Origin: Bacteroidales bacterium
GTDB lineage: Bacteria; Bacteroidota; Bacteroidia; Bacteroidales; GCA-2748055
Length of the DNA: 64,000 nucleotides
Assembly: GCA_029210725.1 (NCBI GenBank)
Contig: JARGFM010000005.1
Location: 89,805-153,804 of the forward strand
Direction: 5' to 3'
This document shows positions 35,416-55,810 of the stretch, one piece after another (position 1 is the first letter of the stretch; each line of letters starts with the position of its first letter). A program made the translations under genes and the position numbers. The notes under the pieces are model-generated. The model ran no database searches. It saw only the letters and a program-made list of their open reading frames with translations, and had not been told where the DNA came from.

Positions 35416-35471
35416 GTTTCGTGTATGATCTCGGCAAAATTAACTATTTTTGCATAGTTCTTATGAAATTT

Positions 35472-35800
35472 TGCAGTAGTTGATCCTGTCGCTGCAGGCT
35501 TCGGCCTGTGGAGGAAAGTCCGGGCAGCTCAGGGTGCCGCACTGTTGAAAAACAGATGTCTGTGAAGGCATGGGTACAAAGAAGAAAATAACCGCCTCGT
35601 CACGGGGTAAGGGTGAGAAGGTGGGGTAAGAGCCCACCAGTGTAAGGGGTAATCCTTACAGCTGTTTGTCCTGCGGGCTGAAAGGCCATGTATACCGGCG
35701 TTATAAAAGCTACCCGCTACTGCCGGGGGGTAGGCCGCTTAGAAAAATGACAGGCATCCTGCACTGGCGGGATACAGAACCTGGCTTAACAACTACTGCA
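35472..35800 (+). ncRNA. rnpB: RNase P RNA (bacterial type A)
   Basis: The universally conserved GGAGGAAAGTCCGGGC is at 35510-35525. GGTAAGGGTGAGAAGGTGGGGTAAGAGCCCACCAG forms the P10-P12 region. ACAGAACCTGGCTTA is at 35774-35788. The terminal P1 helix pairs TGCAGTAGTT (35472-35481) with AACTACTGCA (35791-35800). Confidence 0.93.
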
Positions 35801-35804
35801 TTTT

Positions 35805-50265: not shown

Positions 50266-50280
50266 TTTTTTTACTATATT

Positions 50281-50297
50281 TGATTAGAATATAATCA
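50281..50297. promoter_or_regulatory. Palindromic operator candidate 1 (TGATTA-N5-TAATCA)
   Basis: TGATTAGAATATAATCA has perfect 6-bp inverted arms. It lies 16 nt from the polymerase start codon and is overlapped at its left edge by a plus-strand TAnnTTTG box (tatatttg, 50275-50282). Confidence 0.6.
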
Positions 50298-50303
50298 TTA
50301 TTA

Positions 50304-50320
50304 TGATTACAATATAATCA
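50304..50320. promoter_or_regulatory. Palindromic operator candidate 2 (TGATTA-N5-TAATCA)
   Basis: TGATTACAATATAATCA has the same arms as operator 1 and sits 23 bp away centre to centre. It contains the minus-strand near-consensus -7 box TATATTGT (50316-50309), which lies 20 nt downstream of a TTTG (50340-50337). Confidence 0.6.
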
Positions 50321-50358
50321 TAGGACCTGTTTTATGCAAACATTCATACCCTTTTAAC

Positions 50359-51201
50359 ATGTATTTCGATTCAAATATTAAACTACTGAGAAAGCGTAAA
50401 AATCTCACTCAGGATGAGGTGGCCGTCAAGCTCCGGATGAAACGCTCCACCTTAAGCGGTTATGAGAACAGGGTGGCACAGCCCGGACTTGAAATACTCC
50501 TTCTCTTTTCAAATTACTACCACATTGCCATAGATACTCTGCTGAAAGTGGATCTGTCAAAACTTGGCGAGAGCCAGTTGCGACAGCTTGAGTACGGAGA
50601 AGATGTGTTCCTGAAGGGCGGCAAGCTGCGGGTGCTCGCCTCCACCATCGATGCCCATAATCAGGAGAATATTGAACTGGTTCCGGTGAAGGCACAGGCC
50701 GGATATACCAATGGCTTTGCAGATCCCGAATACATTCGTGAGCTACAGGTATTCCAGCTCCCGTTTCTCTCCAGAGAGAAGAAGTACCGGACCTTTCAGC
50801 TGCAGGGCGACTCCATGCTCCCCATCCCCGAAAAGGCGTGGGTGACCGGCGAGTACGTGGTGGACTGGAAAGGGCTGAAAACCGGGGAAGCATGTGTGGT
50901 TCTTACCATCGATGAGGGAATTGTCTTTAAGATTCTTGAAAACAGGATAGAAAAGGAAGGAAAGATGATCCTGTACTCCCTGAATCCGCTTTATGAACCC
51001 TATGTGATTCATGTGAGCGAGATCCGGGAAATCTGGAAGTTCATACATTTTATCAGTCACGAAATCCCTGAACCTATGATCCCGGAGAACCAGCTTGTTC
51101 GGACAGTGGCAAGCCTGAAACAGGATATGGAACGTATGAAGATGCTCAGTTCAATCCAAAATCATCCCCCAGAAGAGCCTCCTGCCTCCGGATCAGGCTA
51201 A
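50359..51201 (+). CDS. XRE-type HTH plus peptidase S24 repressor (LexA/CI-like)
   Basis: 280 aa. N-terminal HTH (LTQDEVAVKLRMKRSTLSGYENR), an Ala-Gly-containing linker (VKAQAGYTNGF), the S24 Ser motif LQGDSMLP and a Lys in IVFKIL. It is divergent from the polymerase operon. Confidence 0.85.
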   Translation: MYFDSNIKLLRKRKNLTQDEVAVKLRMKRSTLSGYENRVAQPGLEILLLFSNYYHIAIDTLLKVDLSKLGESQLRQLEYGEDVFLKGGKLRVLASTIDAHNQENIELVPVKAQAGYTNGFADPEYIRELQVFQLPFLSREKKYRTFQLQGDSMLPIPEKAWVTGEYVVDWKGLKTGEACVVLTIDEGIVFKILENRIEKEGKMILYSLNPLYEPYVIHVSEIREIWKFIHFISHEIPEPMIPENQLVRTVASLKQDMERMKMLSSIQNHPPEEPPASGSG

Positions 51202-51867: not shown

Positions 51868-52593
51868 ATGTGTTTTACCATAGATATTCATCTTACAAGG
51901 AGGGCCATAGAGGAGCGGTTCAAGGTGGATAGCTCTGCCTTGTATGAGTTTGACTTCAACTACTTTTACAAAGCATTCAACAATCCCCTGATTCCCGTGA
52001 TCGCCCAGGAGGATTCTTCCAGGGTTCAGCTGATGCAATGGGGGCTGATCCCCGGCTGGTGCCGCAACATGGAGGAGGCAGAAAGAATCAGGAAAGGCAC
52101 CTACAATGCCAGGTCGGAAACTCTGCAGGAAAAACCCTCCTTCAGAGAAACACTCAACAGGGGACGCTGCCTGATTATTGCAGGTGGCTTTTTCGAATGG
52201 CAACTGCTTGATAAGGTGAGAGTCCCGTGGTATATCACCCTGAAAAACGGAGCCCCTTTTGTATTTGCCGGGTTGTGCGACAACTGGAGAGACCCCCTGT
52301 CGGGCGATATTATCAGGACTTGTTCCATTATTACCACCCGGGCAAATTCCCTGATGGAAAAGATTCATAACACCAAAAAAAGAATGCCGGTAATCCTCAG
52401 AGAGGAGACAGAGAAAGAATGGATTGAGAAAGAGCCCTCTCTCTTACAGAGAAAGAGGCTGTTGGAAGCCTGTAATGAGCTTGATTTAAAAGCACATACA
52501 GTCACACCACGCCTGTCTGCCAAAGACGCAGATCCTTCAGACCCAAGCTTGATCGAACCCTATGTTCACCTGGCTCCGGGCAGCTTGTTTTAG
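51868..52593 (+). CDS. SOS response-associated peptidase (SRAP/YedK family, abasic-site DNA-protein crosslink)
   Basis: 241 aa. It starts MC (Cys2 nucleophile) and has WGLIPGW, YNARSET, RCLIIAGGFFEW and KRMPVIL motifs. Confidence 0.88.
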   Translation: MCFTIDIHLTRRAIEERFKVDSSALYEFDFNYFYKAFNNPLIPVIAQEDSSRVQLMQWGLIPGWCRNMEEAERIRKGTYNARSETLQEKPSFRETLNRGRCLIIAGGFFEWQLLDKVRVPWYITLKNGAPFVFAGLCDNWRDPLSGDIIRTCSIITTRANSLMEKIHNTKKRMPVILREETEKEWIEKEPSLLQRKRLLEACNELDLKAHTVTPRLSAKDADPSDPSLIEPYVHLAPGSLF

Positions 52594-52743
52594 AGTTTTC
52601 CCGATAGATATCAACAAGATTGCAAGGAGACCGCAAACGATAATGTATTGTATTATAATTATATGATGAATATGTTTAACATAAGATTAACGCATTGTTA
52701 ATATCTGCTGTTCATTCAATGTTAAATTCTTCAGTGGTTTTTT

Positions 52744-52775
52744 TTTGGTGCAATGTTCGAAAGCATATATATTTG
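52744..52775 (+). promoter_or_regulatory. Bacteroidota sigma-A type promoter (TTTG-N20-TAnnTTTG)
   Basis: TTTG is at 52744-52747, followed by a 20-nt spacer and tatatttg at 52768-52775. This matches the published Bacteroides -33/-7 consensus. No ORF start follows it. Confidence 0.6.
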
Positions 52776-52779
52776 ATTC

Positions 52780-53207
52780 TACCAAGTGAGCGATAAAAGG
52801 CCACTCCGTTCTTTAAATGATTAAGTTCATTAGCTGCCAGGGCAACCTGGAAGCGTGAATATGAGTCACGGGAACAGTTAAACAGGTATTGATGCTGTTC
52901 TCCCGGTTTTCGGACCGGACTGTGAACTGGAATACCCGGATTGCTGTCAAAAGCATGAAGGGAGATTCAAAACGGAAACCGTAGTGTACCTGAAAACGCG
53001 GTGAAAGTTGTAAGCAGTTGAGCATGACGCATTGTCTATGGACAAAAGCGATGCAAGTTGTTCGATTCGTCGGGCAGCGAGAGGGAAAACAAAGTTTCGG
53101 CATTGTTTTCCGGTCATAATAACCGTAGCTTGGCGCGAATTAGAGACTACGGTATCTAACAAGCGGAATGGGAACCAGATGCAAATTTGGCTCCCATTCG
53201 TGTTTTT
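52780..53207 (+). ncRNA. Candidate structured non-coding RNA of unknown family (about 425 nt)
   Basis: The unit is bounded by the promoter above and an intrinsic terminator. Helices seen: a GNRA-capped hairpin CCAGG-GCAA-CCTGG (52837-52850); CGTGA/TCACG (52854-52870); GGGAACAG/CTGTTCuCC (52870-52903); a UUCG-capped CCGGUU/GACCGG (52903-52918); a 9-bp GGAAAACAA/TTGTTTTCC (53084-53111); and an 8-bp long-range helix 52978-52985/53146-53153. Only short Cys/Arg-rich ORFs are present. The exact 5' end is inferred, not observed. Confidence 0.55.
53166..53207 (+). terminator. Rho-independent terminator
   Basis: GAATGGGAaCCA (53166-53177) pairs with TGGcTCCCATTC (53188-53199), giving 11 bp with one mismatch. 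It is followed by GTGTTTTTA. Confidence 0.75.
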
Positions 53208-53470
53208 ATACCTCCCCGCTTCAGAAAATTCTTTTGACCAACTGCCAGTATTGAATTATCAATGATTGCTATTGTCTCTACCAATGTCCGTTTTTATGTG
53301 CGAAGAGGGTATTTTATATTAAATTAATATATCATTCGTATATTTGAAAATATGCCTCTATATCTTTAAATATCATGTTATTATCCCATACTATTTTGAT
53401 TACCTGAAATAGGTCCGATGAACAATTCCGAATCACATGCATTTTACTATAACTTTGTACGAACATAAGC

Positions 53471-54823
53471 GTGTTATTGATCAAATTTTTTGTTTTGAAA
53501 AAGTTACTGGTATTTATTTCTCTGTTTGTTTTTTTCTTCTTTGGAGAGATGGCGATGACCTTCTCTGATAAGGGGTATCCCTCCCTTCTCAATGATGAAG
53601 AGGTGCCATTCTCTCTGCTTCTCGACAATCAATATTCTGATTATGAAGGGACGGAGAATATTGACAGGCAGGTAAAAGAGTTTATTAAGCTTTGGAAGAT
53701 TGAAGGGGCAAGTCTGGCAGTCACGAAGAATGAGCGGCTGGTTTATGCAAAGGGGTTTGGCACGGCCAACAGTGAAACCGGGGAGAATGTGAAACCCGGG
53801 CACCTGTTTCGCATTGCATCTGTTTCGAAGCTTATCACAGCGGTGGCTATTATGAAATTATATGAACAGGAAAAGCTCAGTCTGGATGAAGCCGTATTCG
53901 GAGAAGAGGGAATCTTAAACGATTCCATGTTCAGAAGCTACACAGATCCCAGAATTGAAGAGATAACGGTCCGTCAGCTGCTGAACCATACTGCCGGATG
54001 GTCCAGGTATGCAGGGGATCCCCTGTTCAATCCCCTGTACATTGCAAGGAAAATGCGTGTTCAGGCTCCTGCATCCTTTGAGCATATCCTGCAGTACACC
54101 CTTTCCCGCAAATTGAACTTCGACCCGGGGACCAATTACAGTTACTCAAATCTGGGTTATGCCATCCTGGGTAAGATCATAGAGAGAAGGAGCGGAATGC
54201 TCTACCAGGATTATGTAGTCATGCATCTTCTGAAACCCATAGGTATTCATGATATGCACATTGGCAAAAGCTATTATCATGAAAAATATCCCCATGAAGT
54301 GAGGTATCACAGCAGTGCAGGGAAAATGACCACTGCTTCCATGAATGGATCCGGTGAAATAGTGCCCATCTACTATGGAGGAAATTACATGGAGTTACTT
54401 GGTCCGGCAGGGGGCTGGGTGGCTTCGGCACCGGAACTTATCAAGTTCCTGACGGCCATTGACGGCTTTGAAGAGCAGCCGGACATTCTCTCGTCAGAAA
54501 CCATTTCCATGATGTCGAATCCACAAATGGCGGGAAAAGGACTGTTTGGCTGGAGGGGGAGCGACAGCTATGGCACCTGGTGGCGTACCGGATATCTCAG
54601 TGGCTCCTCGGCTTTGCTGGTCAGGCAGAATGACGGGATAAACTGGGTGCTTATGACCAATACAAGCACCTTTAAGCAGTCCAGAATCCATTCCTATGTA
54701 TCGCGTCTGATGTTCGGCGCTGTGGGTGCAGTTGAACAATGGCCAGGAATTGATTTGTTCTCTGTGGACGACAAAGGTCCCGGACCCATTGCAGATATTC
54801 CTGCAACAAATCCGAAACTTTAG
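53471..54823 (+). CDS. Serine hydrolase, beta-lactamase/family VIII esterase-like, membrane-anchored
   Basis: 450 aa with a GTG start (uncertain) and an N-terminal hydrophobic anchor. Motifs: the SxxK motif FRIASVSKLITAV, YSYSNLGY (the Tyr-x-Asn motif) and GPAGGW. A TAnnTTTG box (taactttg) lies just upstream. Confidence 0.85.
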   Translation: MLLIKFFVLKKLLVFISLFVFFFFGEMAMTFSDKGYPSLLNDEEVPFSLLLDNQYSDYEGTENIDRQVKEFIKLWKIEGASLAVTKNERLVYAKGFGTANSETGENVKPGHLFRIASVSKLITAVAIMKLYEQEKLSLDEAVFGEEGILNDSMFRSYTDPRIEEITVRQLLNHTAGWSRYAGDPLFNPLYIARKMRVQAPASFEHILQYTLSRKLNFDPGTNYSYSNLGYAILGKIIERRSGMLYQDYVVMHLLKPIGIHDMHIGKSYYHEKYPHEVRYHSSAGKMTTASMNGSGEIVPIYYGGNYMELLGPAGGWVASAPELIKFLTAIDGFEEQPDILSSETISMMSNPQMAGKGLFGWRGSDSYGTWWRTGYLSGSSALLVRQNDGINWVLMTNTSTFKQSRIHSYVSRLMFGAVGAVEQWPGIDLFSVDDKGPGPIADIPATNPKL

Positions 54824-54883: not shown

Positions 54884-55810
54884 ATGGAACTCTCAGCCAT
54901 CCAACATATCGACTCGGAAAAAGTAGCTGATTTTAAGGCTGATATTTTTATTACCACTCTGAGCTTCGAAACCCGGGCTACAAACGTAGCCCGGATGATG
55001 GAACAGGCCTCCTGCAAAAAAATAGCTCTGGAAAAAGTTCACGGTGTCAGGGAGTTTTCCTACCGCGATAACAGCAGCTATTTCGAGGAGCAGGGATTCG
55101 AGGTTTTCCAGGTAGAATCAGAAATTCCTGATGTGGCTGCTATTCTTCAAGACCTGACCGTAAATAATTCACGTATACTGATAGATTGCACCAGCATGCC
55201 ACCCGGCTGGTACTATGCGTTTTTCAGGTGGTTCTACGAGAAACATAATGGAGATGGACGGGTAAATATTCGTATTGTCTATACCATGGCCAGCTATGTT
55301 CGTCAAGCCGGCTCGCACAGGGTGAAGGAGATTTCCGATTTCCTGCATGAAGAAATAAAGCCTGGTTATGCAAAGAAAACCGCCCTGATTCTGGGTATCG
55401 GACATGAGAAAAAGATTTCCGAATCCATATATAAATTTATCAATCCAGACCTGCTTTATCTTTTTTATGCAGATCCGCCCGCAGAAAAGCGCTTTGTTGA
55501 AAAGGTCTTTATCAACAACCATAAACTGATCAACAGTGTTCCCATCAGGAACCTGATTTCCTATCCCATCAGAAACGGACAAATCATCTATCAGAGCCTC
55601 ATCGACACCATACTTCCTCTTCGGAACGATTACACCATTGTCCTGATTCCGCAGGGCCCCAAAATATTCTCCGTGGCTGCCATGCTGGTGCATATGGGAT
55701 ATCCGGATGTCAAAATCAGTTATCCTGTGCTGAAAAAGCCCCCCTTATCTGACCGTCTCCCCCGGGACGAACCCGTGGTGCTTGATATCCTTTTTGAAGG
55801 AGAGGAATAA
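54884..55810 (+). CDS. Hypothetical cytoplasmic protein (308 aa) with two tandem Rossmann-like beta-alpha modules
   Basis: The composition is clearly protein-like, with no signal peptide. Strand-helix alternation is repeated: DIFITTLSFETRA...RILIDCTSMPPGWYYAFF, then TALILGIGHEKK...TIVLIPQGPKIFSVAAML. I do not recognise the family. Confidence 0.65.
   Translation: MELSAIQHIDSEKVADFKADIFITTLSFETRATNVARMMEQASCKKIALEKVHGVREFSYRDNSSYFEEQGFEVFQVESEIPDVAAILQDLTVNNSRILIDCTSMPPGWYYAFFRWFYEKHNGDGRVNIRIVYTMASYVRQAGSHRVKEISDFLHEEIKPGYAKKTALILGIGHEKKISESIYKFINPDLLYLFYADPPAEKRFVEKVFINNHKLINSVPIRNLISYPIRNGQIIYQSLIDTILPLRNDYTIVLIPQGPKIFSVAAMLVHMGYPDVKISYPVLKKPPLSDRLPRDEPVVLDILFEGEE

Follow-up and report, generated by a model that had tools for sequence, protein, structure and literature searches.

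The window analysed here, a stretch of 64,000 nucleotides from a Bacteroidales bacterium (GenBank assembly GCA_029210725.1, contig JARGFM010000005.1, positions 89,805 to 153,804), was found to carry a stand-alone gene for a structured non-coding RNA (ncRNA) of approximately 430 nucleotides at positions 52779-53207 of the plus strand, with its own Bacteroidota-type promoter and intrinsic terminator (Table 1; coordinates are positions in the window unless a locus is named). Within a clade of uncultured Bacteroidales the gene is present in one copy per genome and is passed on by vertical descent. Sequence comparisons indicate that its product belongs to a widespread Bacteroidota RNA family of approximately 0.2 to 2.3 kb with one shared architecture, provisionally called clamp RNA, and this family matches no family in Rfam release 15. 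A sequence-only reading of the window had suggested that this strand encodes a structured RNA that is transcribed autonomously, is unannotated and may be novel, and the promoter, the terminator, the covariation and the lack of an Rfam match support that proposal. The same reading had pictured a large ornate RNA at one locus; the RNA is ornate, but it is not a lone oddity, since relatives of 0.2 to 2.3 kb form a large family.

The gene lies in an intergenic gap (52594-53470) flanked by an SRAP/YedK-type gene and a beta-lactamase-family gene. The guanine-cytosine (GC) content was 0.44 to 0.50 in the core, which is normal, and 0.23 to 0.31 in the AT-rich flanks, as the sequence-only reading had described. 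In a scan of the window for open frames of 100 codons, the only stretches of more than 350 nucleotides free of a credible coding frame were this gap and the RNase P RNA locus (35440-35804), so the earlier statement that the gap is the only long non-coding one holds apart from RNase P. One 108-codon frame was listed inside the gap (52813-53139, minus strand), and its conservation was not found in homologues. Open reading frames (ORFs) of 96, 71 and 77 amino acids also exist in the region. The 96-amino-acid frame was open in only 2 of 66 homologues, and the variation among these 66 showed no 3-nucleotide periodicity (period-3 power rank 98 of 214). A protein-coding gene or small ORF was rejected on these two grounds, in agreement with the dismissal of the three frames as noise.

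When the window RNA was folded, the minimum free energy of the plus strand was -144.7 kcal/mol compared to -118.2 +/- 5.7 kcal/mol for dinucleotide shuffles (z = -4.63; none of 100 shuffles folded as well), and the minus strand gave z = -3.42. RNAalifold recovered 20 compensatory pairs from 7 sequences. The main alignment comprised 66 distinct sequences of the 430-nucleotide subfamily with a mean identity of 82%, and for these RNAalifold predicted 102 pairs. Canonical combinations occupied 97.7% of the paired cells compared to 31 to 45% when the 3' partners were slid. Double (compensatory) changes were present in 48 of the 102 pairs, compared to 21.8 +/- 2.5 (maximum 30) in 300 within-column shuffles and 10 to 22 when the 3' partners were slid by 1 to 3 columns, and the column pairs with the highest mutual information were predicted pairs. 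The compensatory substitutions of a structured RNA are thus present beyond the controls. G.U accounted for 13.2% and A.C for 0.7% of paired cells, and therefore the plus strand is the RNA strand. The covariation check on homologues that the sequence-only reading had suggested accordingly came out in favour of an RNA, with 48 compensatory pairs and no 3-nucleotide period.

The consensus fold is multi-branched, with at least 12 separate hairpins enclosed by two helices, P1 and P2. Base-pair counts among the 66 homologues illustrate the compensatory changes. In the GNRA-capped hairpin, pair 52839-52848 was GC in 41 and AU in 21 sequences and had the second-highest mutual information. Pairs of the hairpin at 52872-52900 were AU 50, GC 12 and GU 4, and CG 56, UG 6 and UA 4; its conserved loop may have a tertiary role. 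Further pairs of the UUCG-capped hairpin at 52903-52918 were CG 60 and UA 6, and GC 57 and AU 8. The hairpin at 53022-53054 showed CG 28 and UA 26 at one pair and UA 32, UG 15, CG 9 and AU 4 at another, and the hairpin at 53085-53110 showed GC 33 and AU 31, AU 49 and UA 7, and GC 51, AU 6 and GU 6. In the hairpin at 53134-53165 the closing pair was GC 29, GU 29 and AU 8 and an inner pair CG 29 and AU 25, and the UACG loop at 53148-53151 was replaced by UUCG in two loci (L016 and L040).

Five of the helices folded by hand in the sequence-only reading are at least partly present in this consensus, and the closing helix P1 (52782-87 with 53128-33) and P2 had not been seen. The GNRA hairpin (52837-52850), the helix GGGAACAG/CUGUUC, the UUCG hairpin (52903-52918) and UUGUC/GACAA (53032-53045) all gained compensatory support, whereas the proposed 9-bp helix at 53084-53111 held in its outer and inner parts only, its middle often being disrupted. 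No support was found for the 8-bp long-range helix (52978-85 with 53146-53): both partners lie in covarying local hairpins, and its CUACGG strand is a C(UACG)G tetraloop. Pair 52980-53000 of the local hairpin that takes its place was CG 57 and UA 9, a compensatory exchange, whereas in the long-range alternative the same substitution would give only G.U. CGTGA/TCACG (52854-52870) showed no covariation and some mismatches.

Columns 52924 and 52948, outside the predicted structure, were GC 29 and UA 27 and 89% canonical, a possible extra pair. Because these unpredicted columns covary like a base pair, the fold of 52920-52965 is probably not yet right. Three other structural candidates were tried and rejected. 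High mutual-information scores outside the structure, examined for pseudoknots or tertiary pairs, could mostly be traced to the division of the aligned sequences into two clades. P2, with its family-wide covariation, displaced a local GAG/CUC hairpin considered after P1. The two variable N positions on opposite sides of the internal loop were compared by eye for pairing, and their base combinations were mixed, with no clear Watson-Crick signal.

Relatives of the window RNA were reached through the SRAP protein; exact-protein look-ups of two flanking window proteins returned no record. The SRAP protein was identical to one from a 'Bacteroidales bacterium' metagenome-assembled genome (MAG) and had many homologues at 63 to 80% identity. 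Contigs of six SRAP homologues showed the same gene order and a gap of 900 to 1000 nucleotides. In these alignments the segment at approximately 52778-53208 was far better conserved than its flanks, and compensatory changes were visible in the tetraloop hairpins. The window RNA was approximately 88% identical to that of locus L009 (an estimate from the alignment), where SRAP was only 63% identical.

A 20-mer from the 5' end of the RNA was then used as a genome search pattern. It was found once each in 43 species-representative genomes. All 43 are MAGs of uncultured members of the Bacteroidales, Bacteroidia or Bacteroidota, recovered from sediments, hot springs and anaerobic reactors as well as from Danish soils and sediments. 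The conserved 3' core, which formed no part of the pattern, was present in all 43. In all but one of the 43 loci the gene order was Y-family polymerase (-), LexA-like HTH-S24 (+), LON-substrate-binding-domain protein (-), SRAP (+), RNA (+), beta-lactamase-family gene (+), 308-amino-acid protein (+) and E2 acyltransferase (+). The exception, L049, carries a 320-nucleotide variant in another context, convergent with its downstream gene and divergent from its upstream gene, and apart from the promoter and an upstream palindrome it retains only the two ends. In this variant (L049 6527-6850, minus strand) the whole middle is replaced by a different, GC-richer domain of approximately 225 nucleotides and the clamp is kept. 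In another locus (L028 191-576), approximately 55 nucleotides of the 430-nucleotide form, corresponding to two hairpins, are missing.

Metagenomes were scanned with a pattern taken from the 3' end, AATAACNGTARCTTGRC-N12-CTACGG, for which less than one chance match was expected by estimate. At least 120 contigs matched. The 5' core, absent from the pattern, was found upstream of the match wherever enough upstream sequence exists. Full-length copies numbered 138, of which 123 were distinct, with RNA sizes of 200 to 640 nucleotides. Members outside the main subfamily had varied neighbours: the beta-lactamase-family gene lies downstream in 12 loci, 12 have SRAP within 3 kb, DnaG follows in convergent orientation in 8, a UvrD/PHP helicase is the neighbour in 4, and acyl-CoA carboxylase subunits, MsrB or transporter genes are found elsewhere. 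The varied neighbours and the convergent downstream genes indicate that the RNA is a stand-alone gene and not a leader.

The part common to all members is a clamp that consists of P1 (YCAAG/CUUGR), a conserved internal loop of approximately 11 x 12 nucleotides and P2. The family 5' end reads YCAAG-Y-GAGNGAUAAAA-G, which in the window is CCAAGUGAGCGAUAAAAG (52782-52799). The 3' region reads C-AYAAUAACNGUA-RCUUGR followed 12 nucleotides further on by a C(UNCG)G loop, and is present at 53115-53152. P2 is formed by the 3 to 6 nucleotides after GAUAAAA and the nucleotides that precede AYAAUAAC, and it encloses a lineage-specific domain of approximately 100 to 2200 nucleotides rich in GNRA and UNCG tetraloops. 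On the 3' side of P1, a hairpin closed by CRC/GYG and capped by UNCG is followed by the terminator hairpin. Across the family the outer pair of P1 was C-G 84, U-G 26, U-A 13 and C-A 0. The first three pairs of P2 were 98, 90 and 94% canonical with 49 distinct combinations (for example GAUU/AAUC, GGAU/AUCC, GACUGG/CCAGUC, UGCGAA/UUCGCA and GGUCG/CGACC), and the third pair (CG 32, UA 8, UG 5) exceeded all 1000 shuffles, the maximum of which was 0.90. The window RNA thus carries the 5' core, the 3' core and the P1/P2 covariation of the clamp family. The GUA/GA arrangement beside P1 may resemble a bulged-G (loop E/sarcin-ricin) module.

Bacteroides and Flavobacterium promoters have the consensus TTTG-N19-21-TAnnTTTG (-33/-7). 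The predicted sigma-A promoter of the window RNA conforms to it, with elements at 52744-47 and 52768-75 and a 20-nucleotide spacer, exactly where the sequence-only reading had placed them. Relatives carry CTTG or TTTG at the -33 position with the same spacing, and in 102 of the 113 members a distance of 6 to 7 nucleotides separates the end of the TAnnTTTG box from the conserved CAAG. Approximately 95 to 100 nucleotides 5' of CAAG lies a palindrome, of which a single exact copy occurs in the 64-kb window. A TTAAC-N2-7-GTTAA palindrome was present at a fixed position (-100/-95) in 100 of 113 members, and under a stringent definition 79 of its 80 occurrences in 1.2 Mb of DNA examined were at clamp-RNA promoters. 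It is likely to be the binding site of a dimeric regulator. Between the palindrome and the -33 element, TGTTCA and TGTTAA repeats stand at a spacing of 11 to 13 nucleotides from the TGTTAA of the palindrome, in a block that hardly varies among syntenic relatives; other subfamilies have TGTnnA/TGTGAA repeats of a similar kind, and the block may serve a promoter role. The palindrome was not found in the RNase P promoter.

The predicted intrinsic terminator, a hairpin followed by a U run, was identified by folding as a 14-bp hairpin, where the sequence-only reading had given an 11-bp stem; a simple consensus terminator scan did not list it. A GGGAA..UUCCC hairpin with a U run was present in all subfamilies. 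Downstream of the terminator, short blocks (AAATTCTTTTGACCAACTGC, GTGCGAAGAGGG, CCATTCG, GAACAATTC and TTTTACTATAACTTTG) at 53225-53245, 53298-53309 and approximately 53340-53460 are kept across syntenic relatives, and the last of these, TTTTACTATAACTTTG, looks like the -7 box of the beta-lactamase-family gene.

Known families were searched with the 4227 covariance models of Rfam release 15 at the gathering threshold, including GOLLD, ROOL, OLE, raiA, HEARO, 6S, 6S-Flavo, transfer-messenger RNA (tmRNA), RNase P, signal recognition particle (SRP) RNA, Bacteroidales-1, Bacteroides-1, Flavo-1, Pedo-repair and group I and II introns. Over the whole window only RNase P was returned (bacterial class A, 35473-35803, plus strand, 182 bits), and nothing on the window RNA. 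At E <= 10, the region 52550-53500 gave only a 21.9-bit chance match to a Plasmodium snoRNA. No Rfam match was found on the clamp RNA in 13 divergent loci, 6 giant members and 8 short-member loci. ARAGORN found no tRNA or tmRNA in the window. The exclusion of tmRNA, 6S, SRP RNA and group II introns in the sequence-only reading, and its placing of RNase P elsewhere, thus agree with these searches, and the Rfam comparison it had recommended gave no family at gathering and nothing credible at E <= 10 in the region. In the case of tmRNA, the 3' end is moreover a terminator hairpin with a U run; in the case of 6S RNA (RF00013, RF01685), no model matched and the fold is multi-branched with at least 12 hairpins. 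A phage or plasmid origin was rejected as well: blastn against phage and plasmid collections showed no similarity to the window RNA, and the 5' 20-mer was absent from IMG/VR contigs. No description of the clamp RNA was found in the literature, including the catalogue of Bacteroidota motifs by Weinberg et al. 2010 (PMC2864571), although publication elsewhere is possible.

The largest members were found as 14 complete contigs of 1.2, 1.5 to 1.7 and 2.07 to 2.30 kb in nine JGI samples, and all have the 3' core close to one terminus. The samples are Ga0316586/87/88/92, Ga0182065/67/94 and Ga0210322/51. In nine contigs the first nucleotide lies inside the 5' core (GAUAAAAGG...), and the 3' terminus of every one of the 14 falls ahead of, inside or immediately past the terminator hairpin. 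These contigs resemble assembled transcripts; from the shape of the contigs, the samples would be metatranscriptomes. No genomic locus of a giant member was recovered. The longest open frames of the giants were 95 to 204 codons and their purine content 58 to 63%. Two giants, L057 and L121, were 73% identical over 2.2 kb; they showed no period-3 signal (rank 598 of 1112), and of their 31 indels a single one was a multiple of 3. A three-sequence fold of giants gave 74 compensatory pairs, and P2, read by eye from the end sequences, covaried among them (GACC/GGUC, GGUU/GACC, GGUC/GGCC, GGCC/GGUU). Tetraloops were dense: UCUUCGGA occurred 49 times and UCGCAAGA 31 times in the 14 giants, with approximately 50 UUCG hairpins. 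A module that consists of the hairpin UUCUG-loop-CAGAAUAG, then UAG, a UUCG-capped hairpin and GCGAAAA recurs in L057 (approximately 387-1390), L121 (approximately 413-1350), L101 and L162, and therefore growth of the giants by module duplication is suggested. Simple tandem duplication was rejected as their origin, as self-blast showed only one or two short repeats. The strand GAUAAAAG was not found repeated in the giants; the family-wide conserved loop occurs once per molecule.

Only two IMG/VR contigs, from samples 3300035570 and 3300037640, carried the 3' pattern, and both were RNA-virus genomes in which the 3' end of a clamp RNA is fused at the viral 3' end. One encodes a Picornavirales-like polyprotein of 2708 amino acids with RNA_helicase, RdRP_1 and CRPV_capsid domains, and the other an RNA-dependent RNA polymerase ORF with a GDD motif. 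An abundant RNA probably became joined to the viral sequences as a chimera during cDNA synthesis or assembly. It appears that relatives of the window RNA exist as discrete RNAs in transcript-like assemblies, an indirect sign of expression.

Table 1. Positions of the clamp RNA gene, its structural parts and signals, its flanking genes, and selected relatives
Feature	Position	Strand	Remarks
Structured ncRNA, predicted transcript of ~429 nt	52779-53207	+	Promoter-terminator bounds; 5' end predicted
Upstream palindrome ATTAAC-N5-GTTAAT (TTATTAACAATTGTTAATAA)	52686-52702		~95-100 nt 5' of conserved CAAG
Conserved upstream promoter block	52709-52739		TGTTCA (52709-14) and TGTTAA (52720-25) repeats
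-33 element TTTG	52744-52747	+	Read in sequence; Bacteroidota-type promoter
-7 element TATATTTG (TAtaTTTG; TAnnTTTG)	52768-52775	+	Read in sequence; 20-nt spacer from TTTG
P1, 5' strand CCAAGU	52782-52787	+	Pairs with 53128-53133; all cells canonical in 66 homologues
Internal loop, 5' strand GAGCGAUAAAA	52788-52798	+	Family consensus GAGNGAUAAAA; kept in all subfamilies, including 200-nt and 1.2-2.3 kb members
P2, 5' strand GGCC	52799-52802	+	Pairs with 53112-53115
GNRA (GCAA)-capped hairpin CCAGG/CCUGG with GC/GC extension	52833-52854	+	Compensatory changes
7-bp hairpin GGAACAG/CUGUUC(U)	52872-52900	+	Near-invariant 15-nt loop (..AACAGGUAUUGAUG); compensatory changes
UUCG-capped hairpin CCGGUU/GACCGG	52903-52918	+	Top covarying pair, AU 32 / GC 30
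Local hairpin CCGU/GCGG	52979-53001	+	Takes the place of the earlier long-range helix
Hairpin GCAUG../..GAUGC enclosing UUGUC/GACAA (53032-53045)	53022-53054	+	Compensatory changes
Hairpin GUUGUUCG/CGGGCAGC	53057-53078	+	GC 49 / AU 15; UG 34 / UA 21 / AU 6 / CG 5
UUCG-capped hairpin	53085-53110	+	Only outer and inner parts conserved; middle pairs often broken
P2, 3' strand GGUC	53112-53115	+	Pairs with 52799-52802
Internal loop, 3' strand AUAAUAACCGUA	53116-53127	+	Family consensus AYAAUAACNGUA; part of the metagenome scan pattern
P1, 3' strand GCUUGG	53128-53133	+	Pairs with 52782-52787
Hairpin closed by CGC/GCG, C(UACG)G tetraloop cap	53134-53165	+	Loop 53148-53151; covariation
Predicted intrinsic terminator, 14-bp hairpin (53166-53199) and GUGUUUUU	53166-53207	+	Folding
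SRAP/YedK-type gene	51868-52593	+	Upstream flank of the gap
Beta-lactamase-family gene	53471 or 53552 (start) to 54823	+	Downstream flank of the gap
Giants of ~2.1-2.3 kb	L057 1-2237; L121 1-2300; L162 1-2236; L101, L137, L100		L101, L137 and L100 are 2.07-2.12 kb
Giants of 1.5-1.7 kb	L061, L082, L147, L150
Giants of ~1.2 kb	L060, L091, L130, L138
3' ~215-240 nt of clamp RNA at viral 3' ends	L173 9653-9866; L174 1-237	(-) in L174	Sense-to-sense fusion

The explanation that best accounts for the whole is that this stand-alone RNA gene makes a product that would be abundant and would act in trans, in a housekeeping or regulatory capacity. The clamp (P1, the loop, P2 and the 3' hairpins) would serve as a recognition platform, most likely for a dedicated protein with which it would form a ribonucleoprotein, and the variable ornate domain would supply lineage-specific architecture. 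Transcription would be controlled through the TTAAC-N-GTTAA palindrome, approximately 90 nucleotides upstream, by a dedicated regulator that binds it. Taken as a whole, this explanation seems to us evenly poised between being right and being wrong.

Several observations weigh against this explanation. When flanking ORFs from 57 non-main loci were clustered, no universal neighbour gene was found. Because no protein is consistently encoded nearby, the ribonucleoprotein idea is an argument only by analogy with RNAs whose conserved internal loops bind proteins. The innermost P1 pair was C.A in 9 sequences, and several subfamilies have a proximal RCUUGR able to pair with the 5' YCAAGY instead of the distal 3' core; for these two reasons P1 may be dynamic or partly wrong. 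P2 has just 3 to 4 bp in the subfamily of the window RNA. The signs of expression come from relatives in organisms other than the source of the window, and the family could already be described in the literature outside Rfam.

The strongest competitor is an RNA-only machine, either a ribozyme or a self-assembling multimer, with a particle built from the tetraloop-rich variable domain and a fold that the clamp would hold closed. The extreme density of GNRA and UNCG hairpins, the modules that recur in the giants, the strong conservation of the variable domain within each lineage and the lack of a conserved protein neighbour all agree with it. A precedent exists, as the ornate bacterial RNAs GOLLD, ROOL and OLE form RNA-only complexes by cryo-electron microscopy according to one report (10.1101/2024.12.08.627333). 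Yet the sole part conserved family-wide is a small internal loop with flanking helices, which is more typical of a recognition site, and a 10-fold range in size is hard to square with one cage geometry. We regard this alternative as unlikely.

The sequence-only reading had noted that the RNA lies immediately downstream of a DNA-damage gene cluster, an SOS-type cassette with a DnaE2-like polymerase, a Y-family polymerase, a LexA-like HTH-S24 repressor and SRAP, and a regulatory RNA tied to this cassette, or to replication and repair generally, would fit several of the loci. The RNA is directly downstream of SRAP in every main-subfamily locus, SRAP is within 3 kb in 12 other loci despite rearrangements, and other subfamilies stand beside DnaG (8 loci) or UvrD/PHP helicase (4 loci). 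However, the RNA's TTAAC-N-GTTAA is unlike the TGATTA..TAATCA repeats of the LexA-like/polymerase promoter, members elsewhere lie beside acyl-CoA carboxylase, MsrB or transporter genes, and the synteny may simply reflect shared ancestry. The cluster shares no operator with the RNA promoter, and a DNA-damage role is improbable. The divergent promoter between the Y-family polymerase and LexA-like genes (50266-50358) has repeated palindromes of its own, TGATTAgaatataATCA and ATGATTAcaataTAATCAT, which look like the operator of the LexA-like repressor and differ from the palindrome of the window RNA; the latter was not found in that region.

Sequestration of RNA polymerase or of a global RNA-binding protein, in the manner of 6S or Ms1 RNA or of a sponge, would suit a stand-alone and apparently abundant RNA with paired ends, a strong promoter of its own as predicted and a putative dedicated upstream operator, and the repeated modules of the giants could be multiple binding sites. 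Against this, the fold is multi-branched where a rod with a central bubble would be expected, neither 6S (RF00013) nor 6S-Flavo nor a further Rfam model gave a match, for the short members even at E <= 1, and the conserved loop is present once per molecule, with GAUAAAAG not repeated in the giants. There is little to recommend this alternative.

A cis-acting leader, whether riboswitch or attenuator, that controls the beta-lactamase-family gene by way of its 3' hairpin as a regulated terminator might be suspected, since the RNA lies upstream of this gene and in the same orientation in all main-subfamily loci and 12 others, with the terminator between the two. A spacer of 265 to 345 AT-rich nucleotides with a separate conserved TAnnTTTG-like box precedes the gene, however, transcript-like contigs stop at the terminator, and a size range of 0.2 to 2.3 kb is unlike any aptamer. 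The downstream gene is convergent elsewhere (DnaG in 8 loci; a TrkA-C-like gene in L049), by which the proposal is largely refuted; membership among riboswitches or leaders failed on convergence in L049 and seven other DnaG-adjacent loci and on varied neighbours. Such a leader is very improbable. The short ORFs of the region might suggest a locus that codes for protein or has a dual function, or else an RNA of a mobile element or defence system (a retron ncRNA or transposon guide RNA, for example). This alternative is barely credible given indels that are not multiples of 3, the closed 96-amino-acid frame and lack of period 3, single copy and stable synteny, no adjacent reverse transcriptase, transposase or nuclease, and no match in phage or plasmid collections.

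Some features of the surrounding loci were recorded in passing. A conserved 308-amino-acid protein with no Pfam domain (54884-55810, plus strand) always follows the beta-lactamase-family gene in the main-subfamily synteny, and a different domain-less protein of 306 amino acids is divergent from the RNA in five other loci (L049 among them); homology between these two ORFs of approximately 307 amino acids, found beside different subfamilies, was not detected. The LexA-like HTH-S24 gene (+) and the LON-substrate-binding-domain gene (-) converge, and their 3' ends share approximately 56 nucleotides at 51146-51201, an arrangement kept in relatives. At locus L170 the RNase P gene lies approximately 2 kb from a clamp-RNA member, which is probably coincidence.

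Among known systems, OLE, GOLLD, ROOL and raiA are likewise stand-alone, long, tetraloop-rich and heavily covarying RNAs found by comparative genomics, with no obvious coding or cis-regulatory role and often with high expression. The clamp RNA showed no sequence or structure match to their Rfam models, and its hosts are Bacteroidota whereas theirs are mainly Firmicutes, phages or Actinobacteria. OLE, GOLLD, ROOL and raiA have a fairly fixed architecture of approximately 200 to 800 nucleotides; unlike them, the clamp RNA combines a small universal clamp with a domain that varies more than 10-fold, to approximately 2.3 kb. Bacteroidales-1 (RF01693) is also a Bacteroidales ncRNA candidate, bounded by a Bacteroidota-type promoter and an intrinsic terminator and usually near the L20 gene, but its model did not match the window RNA even at E <= 10, its context is different and the cores are unrelated.

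In Y RNA and SRP RNA the paired ends form a terminal stem with a conserved protein-binding internal loop, and the distal part is variable. The clamp RNA shares this plan of terminal stem, conserved internal loop and variable distal part, which is a lead only. It has no sequence similarity or Rfam match to either, no Ro60/Rsr or Ffh-like partner is encoded nearby, it is much larger, and it has two extra 3' hairpins outside the terminal stem. 6S and Ms1 RNA are likewise abundant stand-alone RNAs whose ends form a closing stem, but they are interrupted rods with a central bubble, whereas the clamp RNA has many short hairpins in a multi-branched fold and no 6S model match. The tmRNA of Bacteroidota is similar in size (approximately 400 nucleotides), single-copy and highly conserved, as is the window RNA, but the latter has no tRNA-like acceptor/T-arm or CCA end.

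Large conserved stand-alone bacterial RNAs beyond rRNA are few, the main ones being RNase P, tmRNA, SRP, 6S, OLE, GOLLD, ROOL and raiA, and each has either taught something fundamental about the cell or is still a prominent unsolved question. With confidence that falls just short of even, we would place the locus described here as the first recognised member of an undescribed phylum-scale class of Bacteroidota RNAs, in which a tiny universal clamp closes a modular, tetraloop-studded domain expanded from approximately 100 nucleotides to approximately 2.2 kb, and whose members would be operator-driven, abundant enough for whole transcripts to be assembled from environmental RNA, and a new ribonucleoprotein or RNA-only machine. 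The clamp RNA is conserved more strongly than the neighbouring proteins, and the many lineages that carry it come from sediments, sludge, hot springs and soils. With its consensus core, its promoter element and a fold backed by covariation it offers a testable object, which opens the way to capture of partner proteins, cryo-electron microscopy and genetics in cultivable carriers, and the deletion variants L028 and L049 are useful for defining dispensable parts. For annotators there is a warning that a recurrent 'empty' intergenic region of Bacteroidota is a gene. The design itself is unusual, with a very small invariant core and a cargo domain that varies more than 10-fold, to approximately 2.3 kb; if this is true, some members would be the largest non-ribosomal structured ncRNAs known in bacteria.

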